Assembly: GCF_964204645.1 (NCBI RefSeq) | Contig: NC_134029.1 | Span: 6,014,001 to 6,078,000, forward strand | Direction of reading: 5' to 3' | DNA length: 64,000 nt | Source: Tubulanus polymorphus | Taxonomy: Eukaryota; Animalia; Nemertea | Position numbers and translations under genes: made by a program | In this document: positions 32,863 to 64,000 of the stretch, piece by piece | How positions within the stretch are numbered: position 1 is the first letter of the stretch | Layout of the letters: every line of letters starts with the position of its first letter | The notes under the pieces: generated by a model | Databases searched by the model: none | The model's input: the letters and a program-made list of their open reading frames with translations, nothing else | What the model was told of the DNA's origin: nothing

Positions 32863-50844
<17,982 letters not shown>

Positions 50845-53122
50845 GCGTTTATTTATACGTCGTATATTGGATTCAATGTATCGGTAACCATTATATGGAT
50901 TGTGTACGTTCACTATGAGATAGATGCAATGTTTTAAGAGTAAACTGGCAGCGGCGAATTTCTCGTAACGTATAGTCGTCGAGTGAACGCGTTTGATTTC
51001 GTCGTATGGTTTGAACAACGTTGTGATATACGTATATGATGATAATGATGGGTGAGGATGGTAGTGTGGGAAAAATGAAGGAGTTTAAGTTCTTCTGATT
51101 CCGAAAAACTGGACTTGGATTATTTTTCAGTTCTATCGAAAAAGAGCGGAGTGTTCTACGTGTTGTACGAGTATTTTTACTTTTATCGGTGGAATCCACT
51201 GAAATAAGCTGCCTATATTAAGCATAGTGGCGCTTTATATAATATGAAATATCGATTGCATCAATGATATTATAGTTTAGACGCCCTCTTGTAAGAAGGG
51301 AGTGTTCTGAGATTTAAATCATATGAAATACGCACACTCCACTCGCAAATAGTTCAGATACTTAAAAGACTAACGATATCAGTTGACGTACTGTATAATA
51401 ATGATAATGACTGTGTTGTCGTGTTCTAAGAACTATAAACTGCGGAAAGACTGGACGCCGCCATGTTTTTACTAAAGCATACAGTTCTTTGATAGTTTTC
51501 CCCTGTAGTATATACTTCCCTAGGTAGTTTTCCATCTATCAAAAAAGAACAAGCAAAATCTGTCGGTACAGTTGGCTATAAAGTATAGTAGTATGTCTCG
51601 AATATTGGTGTCACATTGTAATGTATTGCATAATTGATATTGTTACACTTAACCGGTGTGTTATCTATCATTAAGAATAAGTTTGACGGTATAGATCGAT
51701 AATCTTCATATATATTCGCTTATTATGCTATGTGTAATATATGAATATGTGACTTAACACGTGGTGTGATTGATGATTAGGTTATTTGTTGATAAATTCG
51801 GTTAGATTTTCTATTGCAAACGACGGATGAAAGAAACTAAACTTGATTTCGGGGAACAAGTCAAAGTTATTGTGATCGCACCAGTGTTGCTGTATGGTCA
51901 TTCAGATAGACACGTGCCTTTTTAGATATTTTATATACATTCGGGTAAAAATGGCCACTCGTAGTGAAGATAATAACTGTATTTCAATAATTATGAGTTT
52001 ACTATTGTTCAGTGTTGGTGATATGGTGATTGTTTAAGTATATAACATAGATACATTGAAACAAACGTAGGAGAATAGTAGAGCTATACAATGGCTGTAC
52101 ATTGATAAAAATTGAAATACCACGGCGACCACATCCGTAATTTAACCGACGCAGACATGGTACAAAAGATCACACATGGTACAAAACAAGCGCCATCTAT
52201 TGCGTGCTTTGGGATGTTCTCATGTCATCATAACACGAATTTATTTCGGGTCTGGATGGGAAATCCAAATAATGTTAGGTCTACACCATTAAAGACATTA
52301 CTTGAATATTTGCCAAATTCGCTGTGTGTTTCAAAGTACGTACGTATTACAATATGACACTAAAATTAACTACTTCTATGGTGAAGACGTAATTAAACGT
52401 TTTAATCTTTTGACGGAATGTTTGTTTGTTCTTTTATGGTTTGTATTTTCATATTTTTTCTGTAAAGATCTGCGATCTCGGTGCATTATTTTGTGTTTGC
52501 TCAATCATGATGTCGCATTATAGTTCGCACTACATATACTGATGTACTCACTATCTTGCTGCTGGGGAAAGTGATATTTTTCGACATCATCGTTGCATAG
52601 AAAAAACCACAAATTCTAAAATCGAGACCGATCATGACATTGTGTTGCTTAAACCTTAAAAAAAAACTCCTCGTCACCTGGAATCCTGTTCTTTGTAATA
52701 TCATCATTATTTATTATCAATTCCATAATGCAAGAAAATTCCAATATGTCTCCCTTCAAAATTCCATTTCATTGCGTATATTTTCTATATTTTGCGTGAC
52801 GAGTTTTTAATTTACGAACTAAGCTACCGAGAAGCCGAAATAGATATAAGGGCTTCCAACCGCGTTGCTTCCCATGAAGACTTAACAATATGTAACGTTT
52901 ATATAAGCTTGATCTTCATTTACGCAGTAATTTCTTAGCGTATCCAGTCCAGCTTAATCGAATAATGATTTTATAACATATTTAGATGATTCTTAACTTA
53001 AAAACATTTATTATTTAATATACATCTATATTTTCTGTAAACAGAGGTCATATACGGAAATAGTGATGTTGATGTTAACCCCTGCCAAATAACCAATCAG
53101 ATATCGAATTCGAAAGAAAGGT

Positions 53123-53197: not shown

Positions 53198-53703
53198 CTA
53201 GAACAAATTGATTTCAGTTTCATTTTGGCAAGAATTCAATTTTGTTACGAAAACGATATACTTTTTCCTGAGGCCTTATATATACATTTGGTCGCACAAG
53301 CAAGCAACAGTATTTTCTATTGTATTACTAGATTGAGGGCGAACTAGTTTTCTCCACTGCCATATCAGCGCAGCTTTTGGGACACCAGTTGATCTTAGAA
53401 TATATATATCTCACATTAGAATTTGTTTCATCGTAGTATATACATCATAACTTGGTTTTTGATTTTATTCATCGCTGTCTGATAGAGTATTGAAAATGCT
53501 GTATACGTAATGACTCGTTCATAACGGCCTCAAAAAATCGGAATCTACAAAATTAGAAAATTTAGTACAACCATATCTATTAGTTGTAAGATGAACAAAA
53601 CAATACTGCCAACAAGAGACATTTGATTTTAGCGATTTTATGGTGTTTTACAGTTTAGTAACTCAAAAACGATTTGAATTCCTGTACGTGTATGTGGCGA
53701 AAG

Positions 53704-53830
53704 CAGGGCCGTACCTAGAGGGGGAAGGGGCAGTCGACCCCCTAGAAAATTTAGAGAAGTGCCGTTTTTGCAAATATTGTTGTCATAACCGATAGAACTT
53801 CCCTTTTTTCGAGATTATCTACCCTCAAAT
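53704..53830 (+). mobile_element. Partial MITE-like element, family of 18456-18599
   Basis: CAGGGCCGTACCTAGAGGGGG end plus shared AAGTGC..TTTTTGCAAATAT interior. Confidence 0.6.
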
Positions 53831-54392
53831 CGCAAGATATATTATCAACATAGAATTTGAGTATGTTAAAACGAGTAACGGTTAAAACTTTAAACTACCG
53901 TACCGTATTTACCCATCCTATACCCCGTGTGATGTCATATGGTTCTATAGAGGTTTTGGTTTTGGATATTTCTAAGAGAGTTATTTATTGAAAATAATGG
54001 ATATAATAATCATGTGTTTATTAACTAACTACGTATGCTTATGAGAAACGAATGGTTGATGTATGATTTTGTTATTTCACAGTCATAACAATTGATTTAT
54101 TTTGTAACCGAATTTTCATTCAATAATGTTTTGATTTTCGTTGCACTCAAGTTAAATGTCACGTGCGTTACGTCACTCGTTGTTATGTTTGTCACGTGTC
54201 ATTATAAATGGTCACGAGGTACTTGTCCTTGTTCCTTTTGAATCAGTGACGTTCCTATTAAAATTGTCTTTTTCAACAAAACTGACCGCTTTCGTGTTGT
54301 CGATTTTTTCTCACTGCTGACGATAGGTTTTCGAGGGAGGCAATTTGGACTGCATGATTGCTGTGGTATCCCACACCGAAATCACTACATTA

Positions 54393-57300
54393 CTACGCTA
54401 TGCAGATTGTAGATAATTAGTGAATTAAAACCTAGACATTTTGATATATTGTTGCGATATAAAATCCCGATCAACGATAAAAACAGAGGATGTTTGACCG
54501 ATTTATTGCAGACATTTATTGGTCTGTTGCCTCTGAAAACAAAAATGCATTGTATTAAGAAAAAACGGTGTTTTTGAGTGATTAAATGATTTGACTTAGT
54601 CTCACCTCTACTGCAAATGATGAAATCTGATTGGAATTCACATGGCATAGGCAGCCATTTGCCAGCATTATCACCGCTAGTCCATCCAGCTATAACTGTG
54701 CACTTATCCCCGTTCCATTCATATTTTCCAAGCATTTTGTCACCTGGCCAACGTCCCCAATTTAAAAATGACCTGCAACCCGATTTTTAACCAAGGGAAC
54801 GTGATATTTTGCAGTTTATGTATTAGTAGTGAAATGATTCCTTACCTGCGCTCGTCGCTGTACACCTGAGTACCATCAAGCCATTGGAGCGCACCCCATA
54901 CAGCGCCGTTTGGACCGGGTACTGTCCAACGCACTCCGATGTGAGCTAACTTTTTATCGTCTGGACTTTTCGACCCTGTATTAAGCATTCTGAAACGTAG
55001 TTTCGTGCCGAAGGTTTATCGTACGCCAGGTTACGAAAATCGGTGGCAAACAAACAATAGCTTTTCGATACAGGCGATACATTACCTGAGAACAACATCA
55101 TTTTGTTTTTGGTTCATTATTTGCGCGGTAAGCCCGCCGCGAGCCTGGCAGAACAAATCAGTCATATATCCGTCAATGTTTCCGTTTCGAGGCCATCCTC
55201 TGTAGCAGAATTTACCTTCACGCGTCCAGCCAACAGGACAACCTAATCGAATACTGATTGCAATTAATCGATCAGATACCAACTACTTAGTATGCAATTT
55301 ACACAAAATAATCGCTCGTTACCGGATCTATCTGGCGTTGTGTCCGACTCCAGATCCTTTGTACAGAATGCCACATCAGCCAGCTGACATTTCTCGACTG
55401 ACCTTGGTTTTGATAGATACTTTTCACATTCACTATCTGGCAAATCCTTTAATGAAATCCGGATTTAACAAACATCAAATGTCACAAGAAGATGTGGATT
55501 TATTATACAATACATGCATACCTTATTTCCTTTAGCGCACTTAATCGTTCGTGTTTTTGTCGCTTCACCGCAGCAATCCGCCCATTTTCCAATGCGCCAC
55601 CTATTGTAATAAACGAACGGATTACTGGTTTCTCGTGATGATATTAGAGATAGTTATCTCTTGATATTCTACCTTGGATTGGATGCAATTTCTACTTTTT
55701 TCGTCGTCTTTTTGTCATCGTTCACACACGCACCGGAATTACAAACCTAAATGAAAGAGCATTTTGCACAACGAATCTGAGAACAAAATAAAGCAAATGC
55801 AGGAGTATACATAAGTCCAACGCAAATCCAACCCACTTTGTTGTTGGCACATAGTGAGCCTTCTAGAGCTGACATTCTACGATCGTGCGACTCGACGACT
55901 GTGTGCGGCCACGTTTTATCGCGACGTATACACCTGAGAGCTTGACAGATATCCGGTCTTTTCAAACTAGCGCTAAGAACGGCCTACAGCATAATGAAAA
56001 AATACGCGACATTATTCTTAGATCCTTTAGAGATAGAAAAATATTAGATATACCGTACATTAAACAAAGCTTCTTTTGGGCTTTGGTTGTAAAATTATAC
56101 AGGCTTTGGTCATGAAATTAGAATAGCCCATTCTCTACTGAGGAGTCCGTAAAATCTCGGTAAGATTAAATATTCGGTTATTGACGGAATGCGTGAGTGT
56201 TTGTTACCTCGAAATCGTTACCGTACGAGCTTCGACATTGCTCAATCGGATTGATCAGGTGACCGGGCTCCGCTTCAAAAATTGGACTCGCATCAATCTT
56301 AGGCTGATCTCGAATACAAGGCATTCTGTCTACTCTATATGAGATATCTATGTCCAATGAAACTGTATGAATATTTCTAAAGTTTTTGTTGTAACTCAAA
56401 TACTATTAATACCTGTCTATCCATTTCTTTACAAATTCAAGGGAACAGTCGGTCCAAAAATATTTAGGGACTTCGGTGTGACTCAACGCCCAGTGCTGAC
56501 CCATTATACTGCCTATCGTCGATGCGGCTTGGCATTTCATATTTTTCGATGTTTCGTCTTGTGGCATCCCGAACCTTAAACAGAAAGGTTATTCATTCCT
56601 ATTCGATAACTGTTCAGATTTAACATTTTAGCACCGTACGAAAAAGACAAATAACGTACGTAGCCGCAATCAAACTCGCCAACTCGACTGCGGATGCAAA
56701 TCCTTCGTCACGAATGACACCATTGCTGCTAGGACCACAAAGGAAGCCGTTTGCTTGCACATTATTCATTCTATGGCTAGAGTCAGAAAAATCTGCGTCG
56801 TAACATTTGCAATCTAACGAAGACCGAGTGTTCCAGATATTGCGATGGTTTACCGTGTTAAAAGGATAGCCGTATCGAAATGTTCGCTGGGTTTTTTATT
56901 TCTGCTTATATATTCATCGAAAGCCAGTTTCAATTCGTACGTCAGATCGAAAGATTGGATATCGAGATCCTTCTACAAAATTACATCGTAAAGCTGCTTA
57001 CTTATAATTACCATTTGAATATTTATAGCACAATTTCATTCACAAACGCCACAATTACAGTTCACGCAAATGCTTACTGGATTTTCCTTCATTATTTCAA
57101 TATTTGCCAATGCAATGTTGACGGGAAATCCAAGCTTTCCTTCCTCAAAGTGAGATTGTGTCTATATTTGTAAAATATTCATATACATAAATCATATACA
57201 ATCACGATAAAACGTAATATTTACCGAACCATCAAAATATCGGAAATACCTAAAACTATTAATACAGCTGTAATAAGCTGCTCGTAAATGCGATATGAAA

Positions 57301-57616
57301 TTATTTCATTCAAAAATAACGTTCACTCGAACGTTACTCACGGAATAGAACAATTCGACGATATATGACTGTAGTCGATCACCGTAGAAATCAAACATGG
57401 TTTTGTCAGCCACTAATTTCACTTCTACATGGATATTTCCAGCCGAAGAAAATATAACTACAATGGATTTTCATTTATAGGTTTCAGATATGCACAAAAA
57501 TGTCACACTAATCTTGAAGCTGCTGGTTTCAAAATTTCGAAAAGTAATTGTTAAAGTATCTTATTACCAGAAGTTGATAATGCCAGTAGGCATAACCGAG
57601 CGACAACAGGGAGCAT
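54393..57616 (-). CDS. Secreted ADAMTS-like pseudo-metalloprotease with disintegrin-like, TSP1 and C-type lectin domains, 15 exons, ~556 aa
   Basis: Exons 57616-57568, 57457-57342, 57161-57078, 56972-56854, 56776-56660, 56574-56413, 56334-56208, 55983-55837, 55746-55673, 55600-55522, 55446-55323, 55242-55086, 54989-54846, 54772-54606, 54397-54393; GT-AG, phase-consistent, total 1671 nt. Motifs HVEVKLVADKTM, HFDTAILLTR, SIMG Met-turn, PG..EQCRSSYG, ALEGSLC..VCNSGACV, WRIGKWADCCG, CPVGW..FCY..WLDGT..FLNW. The last micro-exon and the start codon (in-frame alternatives 57655, 57682) are less certain. Confidence 0.9.
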
Positions 57617-58151
57617 CTTTCCGACACGTACGAGTGACAAAGCACGATTTACCATTTCAGCATCGATGTCAACTTTAGTCATTGTATAAATATATATAAA
57701 TATATAACACTGCGATGAGTTCCCAAGAACAGAAAATATGATTGATTGTGCAAATATTTGGCCTGTTTTATCATTGGCATTGTTTGAAATTACAAATGTT
57801 GTCACGATGTGTGATGAGTATTAATCGATGTATGTGAACTCGACCTTGCGAACATGAAATTCGGTTGGATATTCGTTTCAAATAATTACCGATATAAAAG
57901 TGTATTCGTAGCAATTAGATTTTGAAATATATATCTTGCACCACGGGATATCGGGAATGTGACTAAATTTCTTTGCTTTAAGAGACTAATTTAGTTAATT
58001 AGTTGTATTTTGCTGAACTATAAGCGCCCTTCATTTGTACACTCTGCTCCACAAATCTGCATTTTCACGTATCTGTTATGTGAAACACTCTGAAACGCTG
58101 AATCCGACGACCTAGCAGACGTGAAAATCCATTCCGTAGTTCGTCTGCCGC

Positions 58152-61210: not shown

Positions 61211-61683
61211 TTCTTGGGCGATAGTGTTTGTGCGGCTGCTCAAAGAAAACCAACCTATCTTATGCATTGTATATGTTAAATGCAATATATAGATATGTAG
61301 ACTAGAAGGGAATAATTGAAACATTGGCGTGACGCGTGTGTGTTTATGCTTATTACGGTATCTATCATGATATGTATTTATATATTCCGATATCATGAAA
61401 TTCATATTTGTTTTACAATTCTTGTCATGGAAACATTTAAAGGTCAATGATGGCCCAATCCAGTGGCAAATAAGCTTCAATTTACGGAAAACAATTAAAC
61501 GTTCTTAGAATGACTTGCTTCGAATACATTCTCGGAGTATAGCGTCGCATAAAGTTTTCGTACATGCTAGCTATACTTGAACTCTATAAATGAACATCCT
61601 TGTTTCCCATAAGAATACATAAGATACCGATTTATTCTCTTAGGGTATCAAATTTCATTTCATTGCAGATTACCGAATCAACG

Positions 61684-63897
61684 ATGGCTAATCAGAGCAA
61701 GTCAGATGCATCATTTTCTTCAAACTCGGCGACAAACACTTGCTTGAACTGTACTATTTGCTGCCAGACTTATAAAAGACCGAAAGTTCTTCCTTGCTTG
61801 CACACGTTCTGTGAACAGTGCTTGAACGACTACATTCCGGCGGAAAGTATTTCGGTCACTTGTCCGATTTGTAAGCACCAGTCGATCATACCGGTCGATG
61901 GGGTTTCCGCATTGCAGAGGAACAGCTACATCGAAGGCATAATGAACAGTATGGCTACTCAGCACAGCGACGAAAAGTCGACTTGTTCGACTTGCAAAGA
62001 ACAGGAAATCGTCACTCAGAAATGTGTTCAGTGCTCGACGACATTTTGCGATGGGTGTTCGTCTGCTCATAAACAAAACGAATTAACAAACACGCACGAT
62101 ATCGTAAATATTGATAACGGTCTAGTTGGAAATGGCAATGCTCCATCAGAGGATATCAAATGCCCTATGCACGATGGACAAGCGTTTCATTTCTATTGTA
62201 CATCTTGCGAAACGGCCATATGCGAAAGCTGTTCACAACTCGAACACCAAGAACACGCTTTTATCCCCCTGAAAGAGGCCATCGCAGAACACAAGGCGAC
62301 CTTGGAGTCGCTCTTAACTAATGCAAAGGCCAAAGCTCCTGCAATAAACGCTGCTATCGCAACTGTCGATAATATCTGTAAATCATTGACGAACTCGTTC
62401 AAAACTGCTGAAAACGATACCAACACGTGGTTTGATACGATGTCACAACTGCTTACGCAACGAAAAGCGATGTTGCTGGAAGACTTGAAGTCGGCGTACG
62501 GTGGAAAGGTCGCCGTGTTAAAAAATCAGAAAGACGATCTGTATAAGCTCCTGAATACGATAGACAGTTGTTGCGAGCTGACTACGAACGCTTTAGAACA
62601 CGGCAACGACACGGAAATTATCCTAATCAAAAAAGAAATGGCCGAAAAACTACAAATTTTGGCGACGTCGACCAACAAGAAATTCTTACCGGAGGAAAAT
62701 GATATGTTAATGTTTACCGACACGGATACCGATGACGTCAAGGCCAGTATATCGACGTTCGGTCGCGTGCAGACGAACAGCGCTGTAGCTTTCCAGACGA
62801 CGGCTAGCGGGGATGGGCTGAAACGTTGTTTTACAAATATACAAACGGTTATTACGGTAACAACGAAGGACCGAAACGGGACTTTAGTAGCCGACGGTAG
62901 TGCGGATATCGACGCTGAACTGGTGAGTAACAATGGGGACGTTGTTCCTATAGAAATTGCCGATAATTTGAATGGTACGTATGACATAACGTTTCGTACC
63001 AAAACGGATGGGCGATACCATTTGGATGTGAAATTGTTCGGCCAACCGATACGCGCTTCGCCGTTTAGAATTAAATCTATGCCAATACCGGAGGGTTACC
63101 AAAAAGATCGGTCACCGACTAAGATCCCGCGATCTAGTAGTAGCGTAGCTAAACGAAGTTCGAAAAGGATGTCCAGTTCTGGTCGTTCGCACGGCTCGAA
63201 CCATCGCAAGAGCAACCCGATCGAAGACGACCTCATCGACCGCATCGGTACGAAAGGTCGAAACAAGGGCGAGTTTACAAATCCGCAAGGACTTTGCGCA
63301 TCCGCTGGAAGAATTCTCGTAGCCGATAGTAATAACCAAAATATACAAGTATTCTGCAATAAGGGCGATTTCAAATTTCGTTTCGGTATAAGAGGCCGAA
63401 ACGCCGGTCAGATGCAAAGGCCAACGGGCGTGTTCGTTACTATGTATGGGAACTATGTAGTAGCCGATTACGACAATCGGTGGGTGAGTATTTATAGCCC
63501 GGACGGAAAATACCTAAACAAAATCGGTCAGGGAAAGCTGCTTGGACCTAAAGGAATAACGGTAGACAGGAATGGTCATATCATTGTCGTAGACAATAAA
63601 GCTAGTTGTATTTGCGTGTTCCAATCGAATGGAAAAATGCTGCATAAATTTGGGACGCGCGGCAATGGCGAAAGTCAACTGGCCGGACCACATTACGTAG
63701 CCGTCAATTCGAACAATGATATCATAGTATCTGACTTCCATAACCACTGCATAAAGGTATTCGACAGCGAAGGGAAATTTTTATTTAGTTTCGGTTCCAA
63801 TGGCGAAGGTAACGGTCAGTTCAATGCACCGACAGGGGTCGCTGTGGATTCGCATGGAAATATACTCGTTGCTGATTGGGGGAACTCTAGGATACAG
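61684..63897 (+). CDS. TRIM3: TRIM-NHL E3 ligase, TRIM2/TRIM3 type (RING, two B-boxes, coiled coil, filamin, NHL); 3' end outside window
   Basis: Acceptor TTGCAG| at 61668/61669, ATG 61684; RING CTICCQ..LPCLHTFCEQC..CPIC; NHL GTKGRNKGEFTNPQG, QRPTGV, VADYDNRWVS; donor after GNSRIQ (CAG|GTATC), so the ORF-track stop is intronic. TRIM2 vs TRIM3 is not resolvable. Confidence 0.95.
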
Positions 63898-64000
63898 GTA
63901 TCGTAAACATTAGTCGTTAATAAAAAAATCCATTAAATTTGGGTCTTGAAGAGGACTGCGGGTAGATAAATATTTTGATTTGTGTCATTTTAAGACAAAC

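Follow-up and report, generated by a model that had tools for sequence, protein, structure and literature searches.

A minus-strand gene of the nemertean Tubulanus polymorphus is described here whose expressed, correctly spliced mRNA encodes a dead metalloproteinase body of the ADAMTS type followed by a TSP1 repeat and a C-type lectin-like domain (CTLD). The gene lies in a stretch of 64,000 nucleotides (NCBI RefSeq assembly GCF_964204645.1, contig NC_134029.1, positions 6,014,001 to 6,078,000), referred to below as the window and numbered from its first letter. It is probable, in our view, that the gene is real, is spliced and is expressed, and that its product is an ADAMTS-derived pseudoprotease, predicted to be secreted and likely to bind rather than to cleave. 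The combination of M12B, TSP1 and CTLD is an unusual mix, and the gene is already present in RefSeq under an automatic name.

An ADAMTS-type fold with a degenerate active site

The metalloproteinase part of the protein is recognizable both by sequence and by predicted structure. The Pfam Reprolysin profile matched residues 27-227 of the 560-residue model, corresponding to residues 49-249 of the NCBI protein for this gene (P0002), with an E-value of 1.8e-9 and with profile positions 3-200 of 200 covered. A sequence search of the PDB returned chains comprising the catalytic and disintegrin-like domains of ADAMTS-5, -1 and -4 (E 1e-16 to 1e-12), aligned from residue 5-7 onward. An AlphaFold (AF2) model calculated from 66 aligned relatives had a predicted local distance difference test score (pLDDT) of 80-96 at residues 45-340, and a Foldseek search with this model recovered ADAMTS-1/4/5 at E 1e-20, with template modelling (TM) scores of 0.80-0.82.

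The catalytic center of this fold is altered. At the position of the HExxHxxGxxHD motif the protein reads SLIAATFGMPQD; in the PDB alignment, HEIGHLLGLSHDD of ADAMTS-5 is placed over SLIAATFGMPQDE, with the same result against nine relatives. Ser, Leu, Ala and Gln stand in place of the zinc-binding and catalytic residues His, Glu, His and His, and no HExxH occurs anywhere else in the protein. In the 66-sequence alignment, conservation reaches at least 90% at three of these positions (E180, H183, and H189), where this protein differs. More broadly, of 119 proteins compared (117 non-self library matches and the two isoforms of the gene itself), 99 have an M12B match, and 90 of those keep the pattern HExxHxx[GNSA]xxH. 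Those two isoforms are among the nine proteins in which the pattern is missing; in two more (P0076 and P0109) the matches stop before the motif, and the remaining five are genuinely degenerate. In a 10-sequence alignment, the methionine of the Met-turn (M208), Asp138, Asp190, and nine cysteines are invariant, and the mature part of the protein contains 22 cysteines, an even number. Because the active site has been lost selectively while the scaffold has been retained, this pattern is read as the signature of a pseudoenzyme, and on its sequence the protein is an ADAMTS-type pseudoprotease. The original prediction, which was made from the DNA letters of the window, had suggested a protein that binds rather than cleaves; this suggestion is supported, for a reason that it did not include, namely the replacement of all three zinc-binding histidines and the catalytic glutamate. 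The matrix, immune, mucus or venom roles that it also put forward are candidates. Overall, what it observed proved mostly correct, and its interpretation was borne out in part.

The N-terminus and the missing prodomain

The model opens with a hydrophobic N-terminus, MLPVVARLCLLALSTSVIFSSAG, with a mean Kyte-Doolittle value of 2.03 across the first 19 residues. With a small-residue site, SSA/G, it forms a putative signal peptide, in a part of the gene outside RNA cover. No further hydrophobic 19-mer is present, and the single-pass membrane architecture of ADAMs is not found; the protein is predicted to be secreted. There is likewise no N-glycosylation sequon in the protein.

The Reprolysin match begins only 26 residues after the ATG. 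Neither a furin site (R-X-[KR]-R) nor a Pfam match to Pep_M12B_propep was found in the entire protein, and a search of the 64-kb window with N-terminal segments from 62 relatives that possess a prodomain revealed no prodomain-like coding sequence (the strongest match, E 0.046, lay at an unrelated site). That the predicted signal peptide runs straight into the M12B domain, with no propeptide or furin site, had been claimed at the outset and holds for the genomic model. It may be that the prodomain became dispensable once catalysis had been lost, because its job is to keep an active site latent.

Ancillary domains

The ADAMTS character of the protein extends beyond the M12B domain. In P0002, Pfam placed an ADAMTS_CR_2 domain at residues 261-337 and a single TSP1_ADAMTS repeat at residues 355-402 (E-values in Table 1); no Disintegrin or ADAM_CR match was reported for the protein. 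The TSP1 repeat is atypical, reading WRIGKWADCCGE and missing the CSxTCG motif. Pfam found neither ADAMTS_CR_3 nor ADAMTS_spacer1 at E-values up to 1, and the CTLD follows directly after the TSP1 repeat. The predicted succession of an M12B domain, a disintegrin-like domain, and one ADAMTS-type TSP1 repeat was thus borne out by Pfam, by the PDB sequence search and by the fold search.

The C-terminal domain was identified as lectin-like by several routes. Exhaustive HMMER searching found two nematode proteins with multiple CTLDs (P0077 and P0115) that match exactly this part of the protein. In a Foldseek search with a model of the domain, the matches listed were all CTLDs (snaclecs, LOX-1, CD23, and CLEC-2), with 200 at E-values up to 0.001. 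An ESM Atlas model of the same part gave TM scores of 0.67-0.74 to Lectin_C clusters, with 28 of 30 feature hits being Lectin_C. The long form of the CTLD has six cysteines, with CPxGW...CY at its start and ...C near its end. This six-cysteine pattern is present, at model residues 401, 412, 431, 524, 544, and 553, and all six columns are invariant in comparison with three nematode CTLD proteins. A PDB sequence search with the domain alone yielded weak matches (best E 0.076). Taken with a Lectin_C score just under the cut-off, these models indicate that the CTLD is divergent but real, and the terminal C-type lectin of the original prediction stands in this modified form.

The canonical calcium- and sugar-binding motifs of C-type lectins are EPN/QPD and WND. 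None of EPN, QPD, EPD, QPN, EPS, or WND occurs in the domain; by alignment made by hand, the places of EPN/QPD and WND appear to read WPG and WLP. The domain is predicted to be lectin-like and not sugar-binding.

The three exons that encode the CTLD (468 nt) are flanked on both sides by phase-1 introns (introns 11 and 14). The phase-1 intron at the start of the domain had been predicted and is confirmed; the second flank is new, and such a symmetric 1-1 exon set supports the proposed exon shuffling of an extracellular domain.

Gene model and RNA evidence

A gene model was built from open frames and checked by script. It consists of 15 exons on the minus strand, with a coding sequence running from an ATG at 57616 to the stop codon tabulated below, and a product of 560 amino acids. 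The open frame, 1683 nt, continues as a single frame through all 15 exons, and all 14 introns (72-224 nt) have GT..AG boundaries and keep the frame. The product is identical, letter for letter, to residues 23-582 of NCBI XP_074651305.1 (P0002; labelled "ADAMTS 8-like", Tubulanus). A database search with exon 6 alone returned P0001, the other NCBI isoform of the gene. XP_074651305.1 starts at an in-frame ATG at 57682, 66 nt upstream of ours; because that ATG sits immediately after a TATA-like run, the ATG at 57616 is probably the likelier start. The surrounding sequence is AT-rich (GC 38.6%). A tblastn search of the 64-kb window with the model returned the gene itself as its sole match, with no paralogue.

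At the 3' end, the original prediction went wrong: its low end at 54393 and its C-terminal tail came from reading through the donor G/GTGAGA. An extra intron of 73 nt (54533-54605) is supported by an RNA joint at 54532/54606 and by the NCBI protein, and the real end of the protein is ...FIICSREATDQ. Two AATAAA signals are found here, one overlapping the stop codon and the second 10 nt on. The other NCBI isoform, isoform X2 (P0001, 522 amino acids), ends at a stop codon reached by reading through the donor of intron 13 (CGC AGG TAA); it is read as retention of intron 13 (54846-54772), by which the CTLD is cut to half.

Five public sequencing runs (X1 to X5) cover the stretch, and their kinds were inferred from the behavior of their contigs. 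The contigs of X4 and X5 are spliced and were taken as RNA; those of X2 and X3 cross introns and have adapter-like loose ends, and X1 is colinear over 16.5 kb. Introns 3-14 all appear as joints in RNA contigs, which amounts to 12 of the 14 introns (11 in X4 and 5 in X5, from two studies). A single X4 contig of 2854 nt, with a depth of 248, has zero mismatches and splices that match introns 3-13, intron 13 being spliced out. In the X5 contigs, which come from a separate study, introns 9-12 and the 73-nt terminal intron have been removed. The joint between the TSP1 repeat and the CTLD (exon 11 to exon 12, 55240/55321) is present in the RNA of both studies, and the two joints within the CTLD (54989/55086 and 54770/54844) are also found in RNA contigs. 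Evidence placing the lectin exons on a transcript of their own had been named as a finding that would overturn the architecture, and this check, once run, refuted the separate transcript.

Two differences between individuals lie inside the gene span, both in introns: an insertion of GAA at 55634 in intron 9 (runs X2 and X3) and an A>G change at 57496 in intron 1 (runs X1, X2, and X3). No coding differences between individuals were seen in the contigs examined, and the variation is too sparse to test for constraint. An apparent joint in X1 at 51789/57299, together with a loose end at 57319, has sides of only 21 letters and was taken as the product of chance matches.

Relatives and phylogeny

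A HMMER search of 1.84 billion representative sequences at E-values up to 0.001 returned 118 proteins. Only the gene's own cluster was found below 1e-30; the best non-self match was a fragment from the annelid Capitella teleta, at 30% identity, and the next matches came from fish, insects, a myriapod, a cnidarian, and molluscs. Of 5216 candidates in a word-based search with the whole protein, its own cluster alone matched; the CTLD part, searched against shorter proteins, matched none of three candidates.

A tree was calculated from 77 M12B plus disintegrin-like regions, with P0081 and P0089 left out because their matches are shorter than 230 residues. The terminal branch of the gene measures 2.68, against a median of 0.59, and it has no supported position in the tree. 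Together with the 30% identity of the best non-self match, this branch length upholds the claim that the protein is lineage-specific. The four degenerate rows in the tree require four changes, so that dead sites arose repeatedly. A clade of dead ADAMTS proteins was considered and is not seen in the tree, in which the placement of the protein itself, a long-branch join with P0033, is unreliable.

The five relatives with genuinely degenerate motifs read QEIGH (P0014), HHMAH (P0021), SEIGR (P0066), HQIGH (P0081, from Physella acuta), and KEVAK..F (P0089, from Plakobranchus ocellatus). They span at least three lineages and carry automatic ADAMTS names or none. In the two gastropod proteins, P0081 and P0089, the degenerate motif is accompanied by a signal-like N-terminus that runs straight into the M12B domain, and both are without a prodomain in the alignment.

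The architecture has no counterpart among these relatives. Pfam was applied to the 117 non-self matches (46 at E up to 1e-5 and 71 at E up to 1e-8), and in none of the 117 was Lectin_C found together with Reprolysin or ADAMTS_CR_2; Lectin_C was present only in the two nematode lectins. A phmmer search with the CTLD over the 119 proteins (E up to 10) agreed with Pfam in finding no relative that combines M12B and CTLD. Other C-terminal additions are found among the relatives, including GON, CUB, MAM, ShK, and fn3 domains, and one metagenomic protein (P0066) combines Reprolysin and ADAMTS_CR_2 with a Ricin B lectin. The literature searches turned up neither a protein of this fused kind nor an ADAMTS-type pseudoprotease, and both results support an architecture that had not been characterized.

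Weighing the explanations

The explanation that we favor is that of a predicted secreted pseudoprotease that probably works by binding. After removal of the signal peptide, the dead M12B and disintegrin-like body would act as a protein-binding scaffold, by analogy with the inactive ADAMs, and the TSP1 repeat and the CTLD would provide further contacts with proteins or matrix. The CTLD would have been gained as the symmetric phase 1-1 exon set.

Several observations weigh against this explanation, and most of them concern the 5' end of the gene. Exons 1 and 2 lie outside every RNA contig examined: X4 has a depth of 0 on the second and close to 0 on the first, X5 stops short (no cover 5' of 55916), and the DNA-like runs span the exon 1-2 region unspliced. 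Missing RNA cover of this kind, whether over exons 1-2 or 5' of 55916 in X5, proves nothing alone. In addition, the X4 contig carries a leader of about 1355 nt that is absent from the window and is joined exactly at the exon 3 acceptor. The 30 leader letters adjoining this junction have no match in the window at up to three mismatches, and the leader differs from the sequence of both exon 1 and exon 2. The leader holds an in-frame TAA four codons upstream of exon 3, and it therefore cannot extend the protein; if the form joining the leader to exon 3 is the main mRNA, the secreted protein cannot be encoded. The remaining points concern the CTLD and the relatives. When the CTLD was searched alone, it scored 22.2 bits with Lectin_C (E 2.5e-4), just short of the cut-off of 22.6, and Pfam made no report of Lectin_C on the whole protein. 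The AF2 model of the CTLD, from a 4-row alignment, had a pLDDT of 51.7, and in the full-length model the domain was below 50. No orthologue stands out among the HMMER matches, and the very long terminal branch would also fit relaxed constraint.

The leader may be a distal or alternative non-coding leader, a read-through from a gene beyond the window, part of a chimeric contig, or the result of trans-splicing, ranked as the least likely of the four. A spliced leader is unlikely, as the window's two other genes have no shared loose end and the leader is far too long; no report of trans-splicing in Nemertea was found in the literature. The secreted protein is kept as the best reading because the NCBI model contains exons 1 and 2 and because exon 2 encodes a genuine first strand of the M12B domain.

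The alternative that draws most on the 5' end is that the locus is decaying or non-productive: its abundant RNA, running from the leader through exons 3...14, would offer no usable start and no signal peptide, and its open frame would be a relic. We regard this as unlikely. The out-of-window leader with its stop codon and the zero depth on exon 2 speak for it, as do the length of the terminal branch, the loss of the catalytic site and the intron-13 retention that truncates the CTLD in NCBI isoform X2; set against these are 1683 nt that have stayed open over 15 exons with 14 canonical introns, the retention of the structural cysteines, the Met-turn and the Asp columns, a fold predicted with high confidence, and the presence of exons 1-2 in the NCBI model. 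Contigs, moreover, may be chimeric and may miss rare forms.

A second alternative, which we consider improbable, is that the protein is a toxin or defence component that is secreted in the mucus or proboscis and acts on a protein of prey or predator; it would then be the non-enzymatic, single-chain equivalent of the snake-venom metalloproteinase-snaclec assemblies. Nemertean secretions are reported to contain both M12B proteins and C-type lectins, as separate proteins (PMC7460313). Snaclecs are found, weakly, among the top matches of the CTLD in sequence and fold, and these matches are no better than those to LOX-1 or CD23. The RNA contig is deep, though depth cannot rank genes. The M12B and disintegrin-like part is of the ADAMTS type and not of the venom or ADAM type, and toxins are usually multigene, whereas no paralogue is found in the window, nor any protein above 30% identity in the library.

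It is most improbable that the protein is an active metalloprotease with non-canonical ligands: it retains the fold and the Met-turn, as well as Asp190, which follows the third ligand position, but all four catalytic-site residues are replaced, HExxH is found nowhere else, and the part of the M12 enzyme table available in PMC11266112 includes no active enzyme with such a motif. An artefactual fusion of neighboring ADAMTS-like and lectin genes, which the separable CTLD exon set and the silence of whole-protein Pfam on Lectin_C might suggest, is just as improbable, being refuted by the exon 11-12 joint in the RNA of two studies and by a frame that continues in phase 1.

Comparison with known systems

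Like the human ADAMTS proteases of the ADAMTS-1, -4, -5, and -8 type, which supply its best sequence and fold matches, the protein has an M12B fold with a Met-turn and a disintegrin-like domain, followed by TSP1. Unlike the ADAMTS proteases, it is without a prodomain, furin site, zinc motif, catalytic glutamate, cysteine-rich region, and spacer, and it ends in a CTLD. The M12B and disintegrin-like part of ADAMTS proteins has 16 cysteines, and the corresponding part here has fewer, with 10. ADAMTSL proteins and papilin are non-catalytic, secreted ADAMTS relatives that bind matrix; they have no protease domain and consist of TSP1, cysteine-rich and spacer modules, whereas the protein described here keeps a dead protease domain and is without the cysteine-rich and spacer regions. 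Sea urchin EBR1 is reportedly an ADAMTS-family egg receptor for sperm, and so a case of recognition rather than matrix turnover; it is very large, with many TSP1 and CUB repeats, and is not known to have a CTLD.

The pairing of an M12B domain with C-type lectin-like modules recalls the snake-venom P-III/P-IIId enzymes with their snaclecs, such as the factor X activator of Russell's viper (PDB 2e3x). Both 2e3x and snaclecs were among the fold matches, with TM scores to P-III chains of 0.40-0.44 over the full length. The lectin-like chains of venom P-IIId enzymes are separate polypeptides. The venom enzyme differs further in being active and in having a non-catalytic part of the ADAM type.

Parallels in the state of the active site are P0014, P0021, P0066, P0081, and P0089, which share an ADAMTS-type M12B domain with a broken zinc motif. 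P0066 also pairs an ADAMTS-type module with a lectin, although one of another kind (Ricin B). The five are only 20-25% identical to the protein, form no common clade with it and have no CTLD; all are uncharacterized automatic models.

Inactive ADAMs are the established M12 pseudopeptidases (ADAM2, 7, 11, 18, 22, 23, 29, and 32, and C. elegans unc-71) and work through protein-protein contacts; in the portion of the source available, those listed are all ADAMs, and ADAMTS is mentioned only as a family name (PMC11266112). The protein resembles these, as there described, in having a degenerate HExGHxxGxxHD motif and a Met-turn that is kept. It differs from them in that inactive ADAMs are membrane-anchored and have a prodomain and disintegrin, cysteine-rich and EGF domains of the ADAM type, whereas this protein is predicted to be soluble, without a prodomain, and of the ADAMTS type, with TSP1 and CTLD.

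Gene features and neighboring genes

The coordinates of the gene's features are collected in Table 1.

Table 1. Features of the ADAMTS-like gene, in window positions.
Feature	Position	Strand	Remarks
Exon 1	57568..57616	-	ATG and start of predicted signal peptide (MLPVVARLCLLALSTS+G); GTAATA donor, phase-1 end
Exon 2	57342..57457	-	End of signal peptide, first M12B strand and helix (NIHVEVKLVADKTMFDFYG...)
Exon 3 acceptor	57162..57163	-	X4 RNA contig departs from the window sequence here
Exons 3-7	57161-57078, 56972-56854, 56776-56660, 56574-56413, 56334-56208	-	Rest of M12B and start of disintegrin-like domain
Degenerate zinc motif SLIAATFGMPQD	56556..56676	-	Model residues 157-168, interrupted by intron 5
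Met-turn methionine	56502..56504	-	Model M186 = P0002 M208; alignment-invariant column
ADAMTS disintegrin-like domain (ADAMTS_CR_2)	55723..56267	-	Exons 7-9; Pfam E 1.5e-9
TSP1, ADAMTS type	55381..55599	-	Exons 10-11 (55600-55522, 55446-55323); PF19030, E 2.5e-6
CTLD	54606..55242	-	Exons 12-14 (55242-55086, 54989-54846, 54772-54606), 468 nt
Exon 15, coding part	54516..54532	-	..EATDQ, stop 54518-54516; X5 joint 54532/54606 and P0002 C-terminus

Two other genes were recognized in the window, both on the plus strand. A Cys-loop ligand-gated ion channel gene with Neur_chan_LBD and Neur_chan_memb exons occupies 33131-50841, with a 3' untranslated region to about 54255; X4 contigs cover, without splicing, the stretch from its last exon at 50406 up to 53507 and a second stretch at 53542-54255. 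With its 3' untranslated region reaching about 54255, this gene converges on the ADAMTS-like gene, their 3' ends lying a few hundred bases apart. An intron of this receptor gene contains a perfect (TA)115 microsatellite (44361-44591). On the other side, a gene of the TRIM-NHL type (61594-63903) diverges from the ADAMTS-like gene. It has a single frame of 770 amino acids with RING, B-box, filamin, and NHL repeats, and its coding part is apparently intronless; at 63897 an X4 contig passes from this gene into sequence that the window does not contain.

Significance

Catalytic inactivity is a familiar state in ADAMs, and no inactive member of the ADAMTS branch is listed in the portion of PMC11266112 available. 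In the protein described here, the ADAMTS body and its structural residues persist despite the loss of the active site, of the prodomain, and of the usual ancillary modules, and a lectin-like domain appears to have been added by exon shuffling. A bolder interpretation would make it the first ADAMTS-type pseudoprotease of a new architecture, a single-chain chimera of dead metalloproteinase and lectin that is convergent with the viper assemblies and is secreted for the targeting of prey or predators or for the recognition of self or gametes, with loss of the prodomain accompanying loss of catalysis as in the two gastropod proteins; we hold this to be improbable.

The finding has no bearing on a long-standing open question. 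Together with the five other proteins with broken motifs (two from gastropods, two NCBI models, and one metagenomic), it suggests that ADAMTS bodies have repeatedly been turned into binding scaffolds in invertebrates. It also offers a clean case for studying the binding partners of a dead metzincin domain, and for asking if loss of the prodomain follows loss of catalysis.

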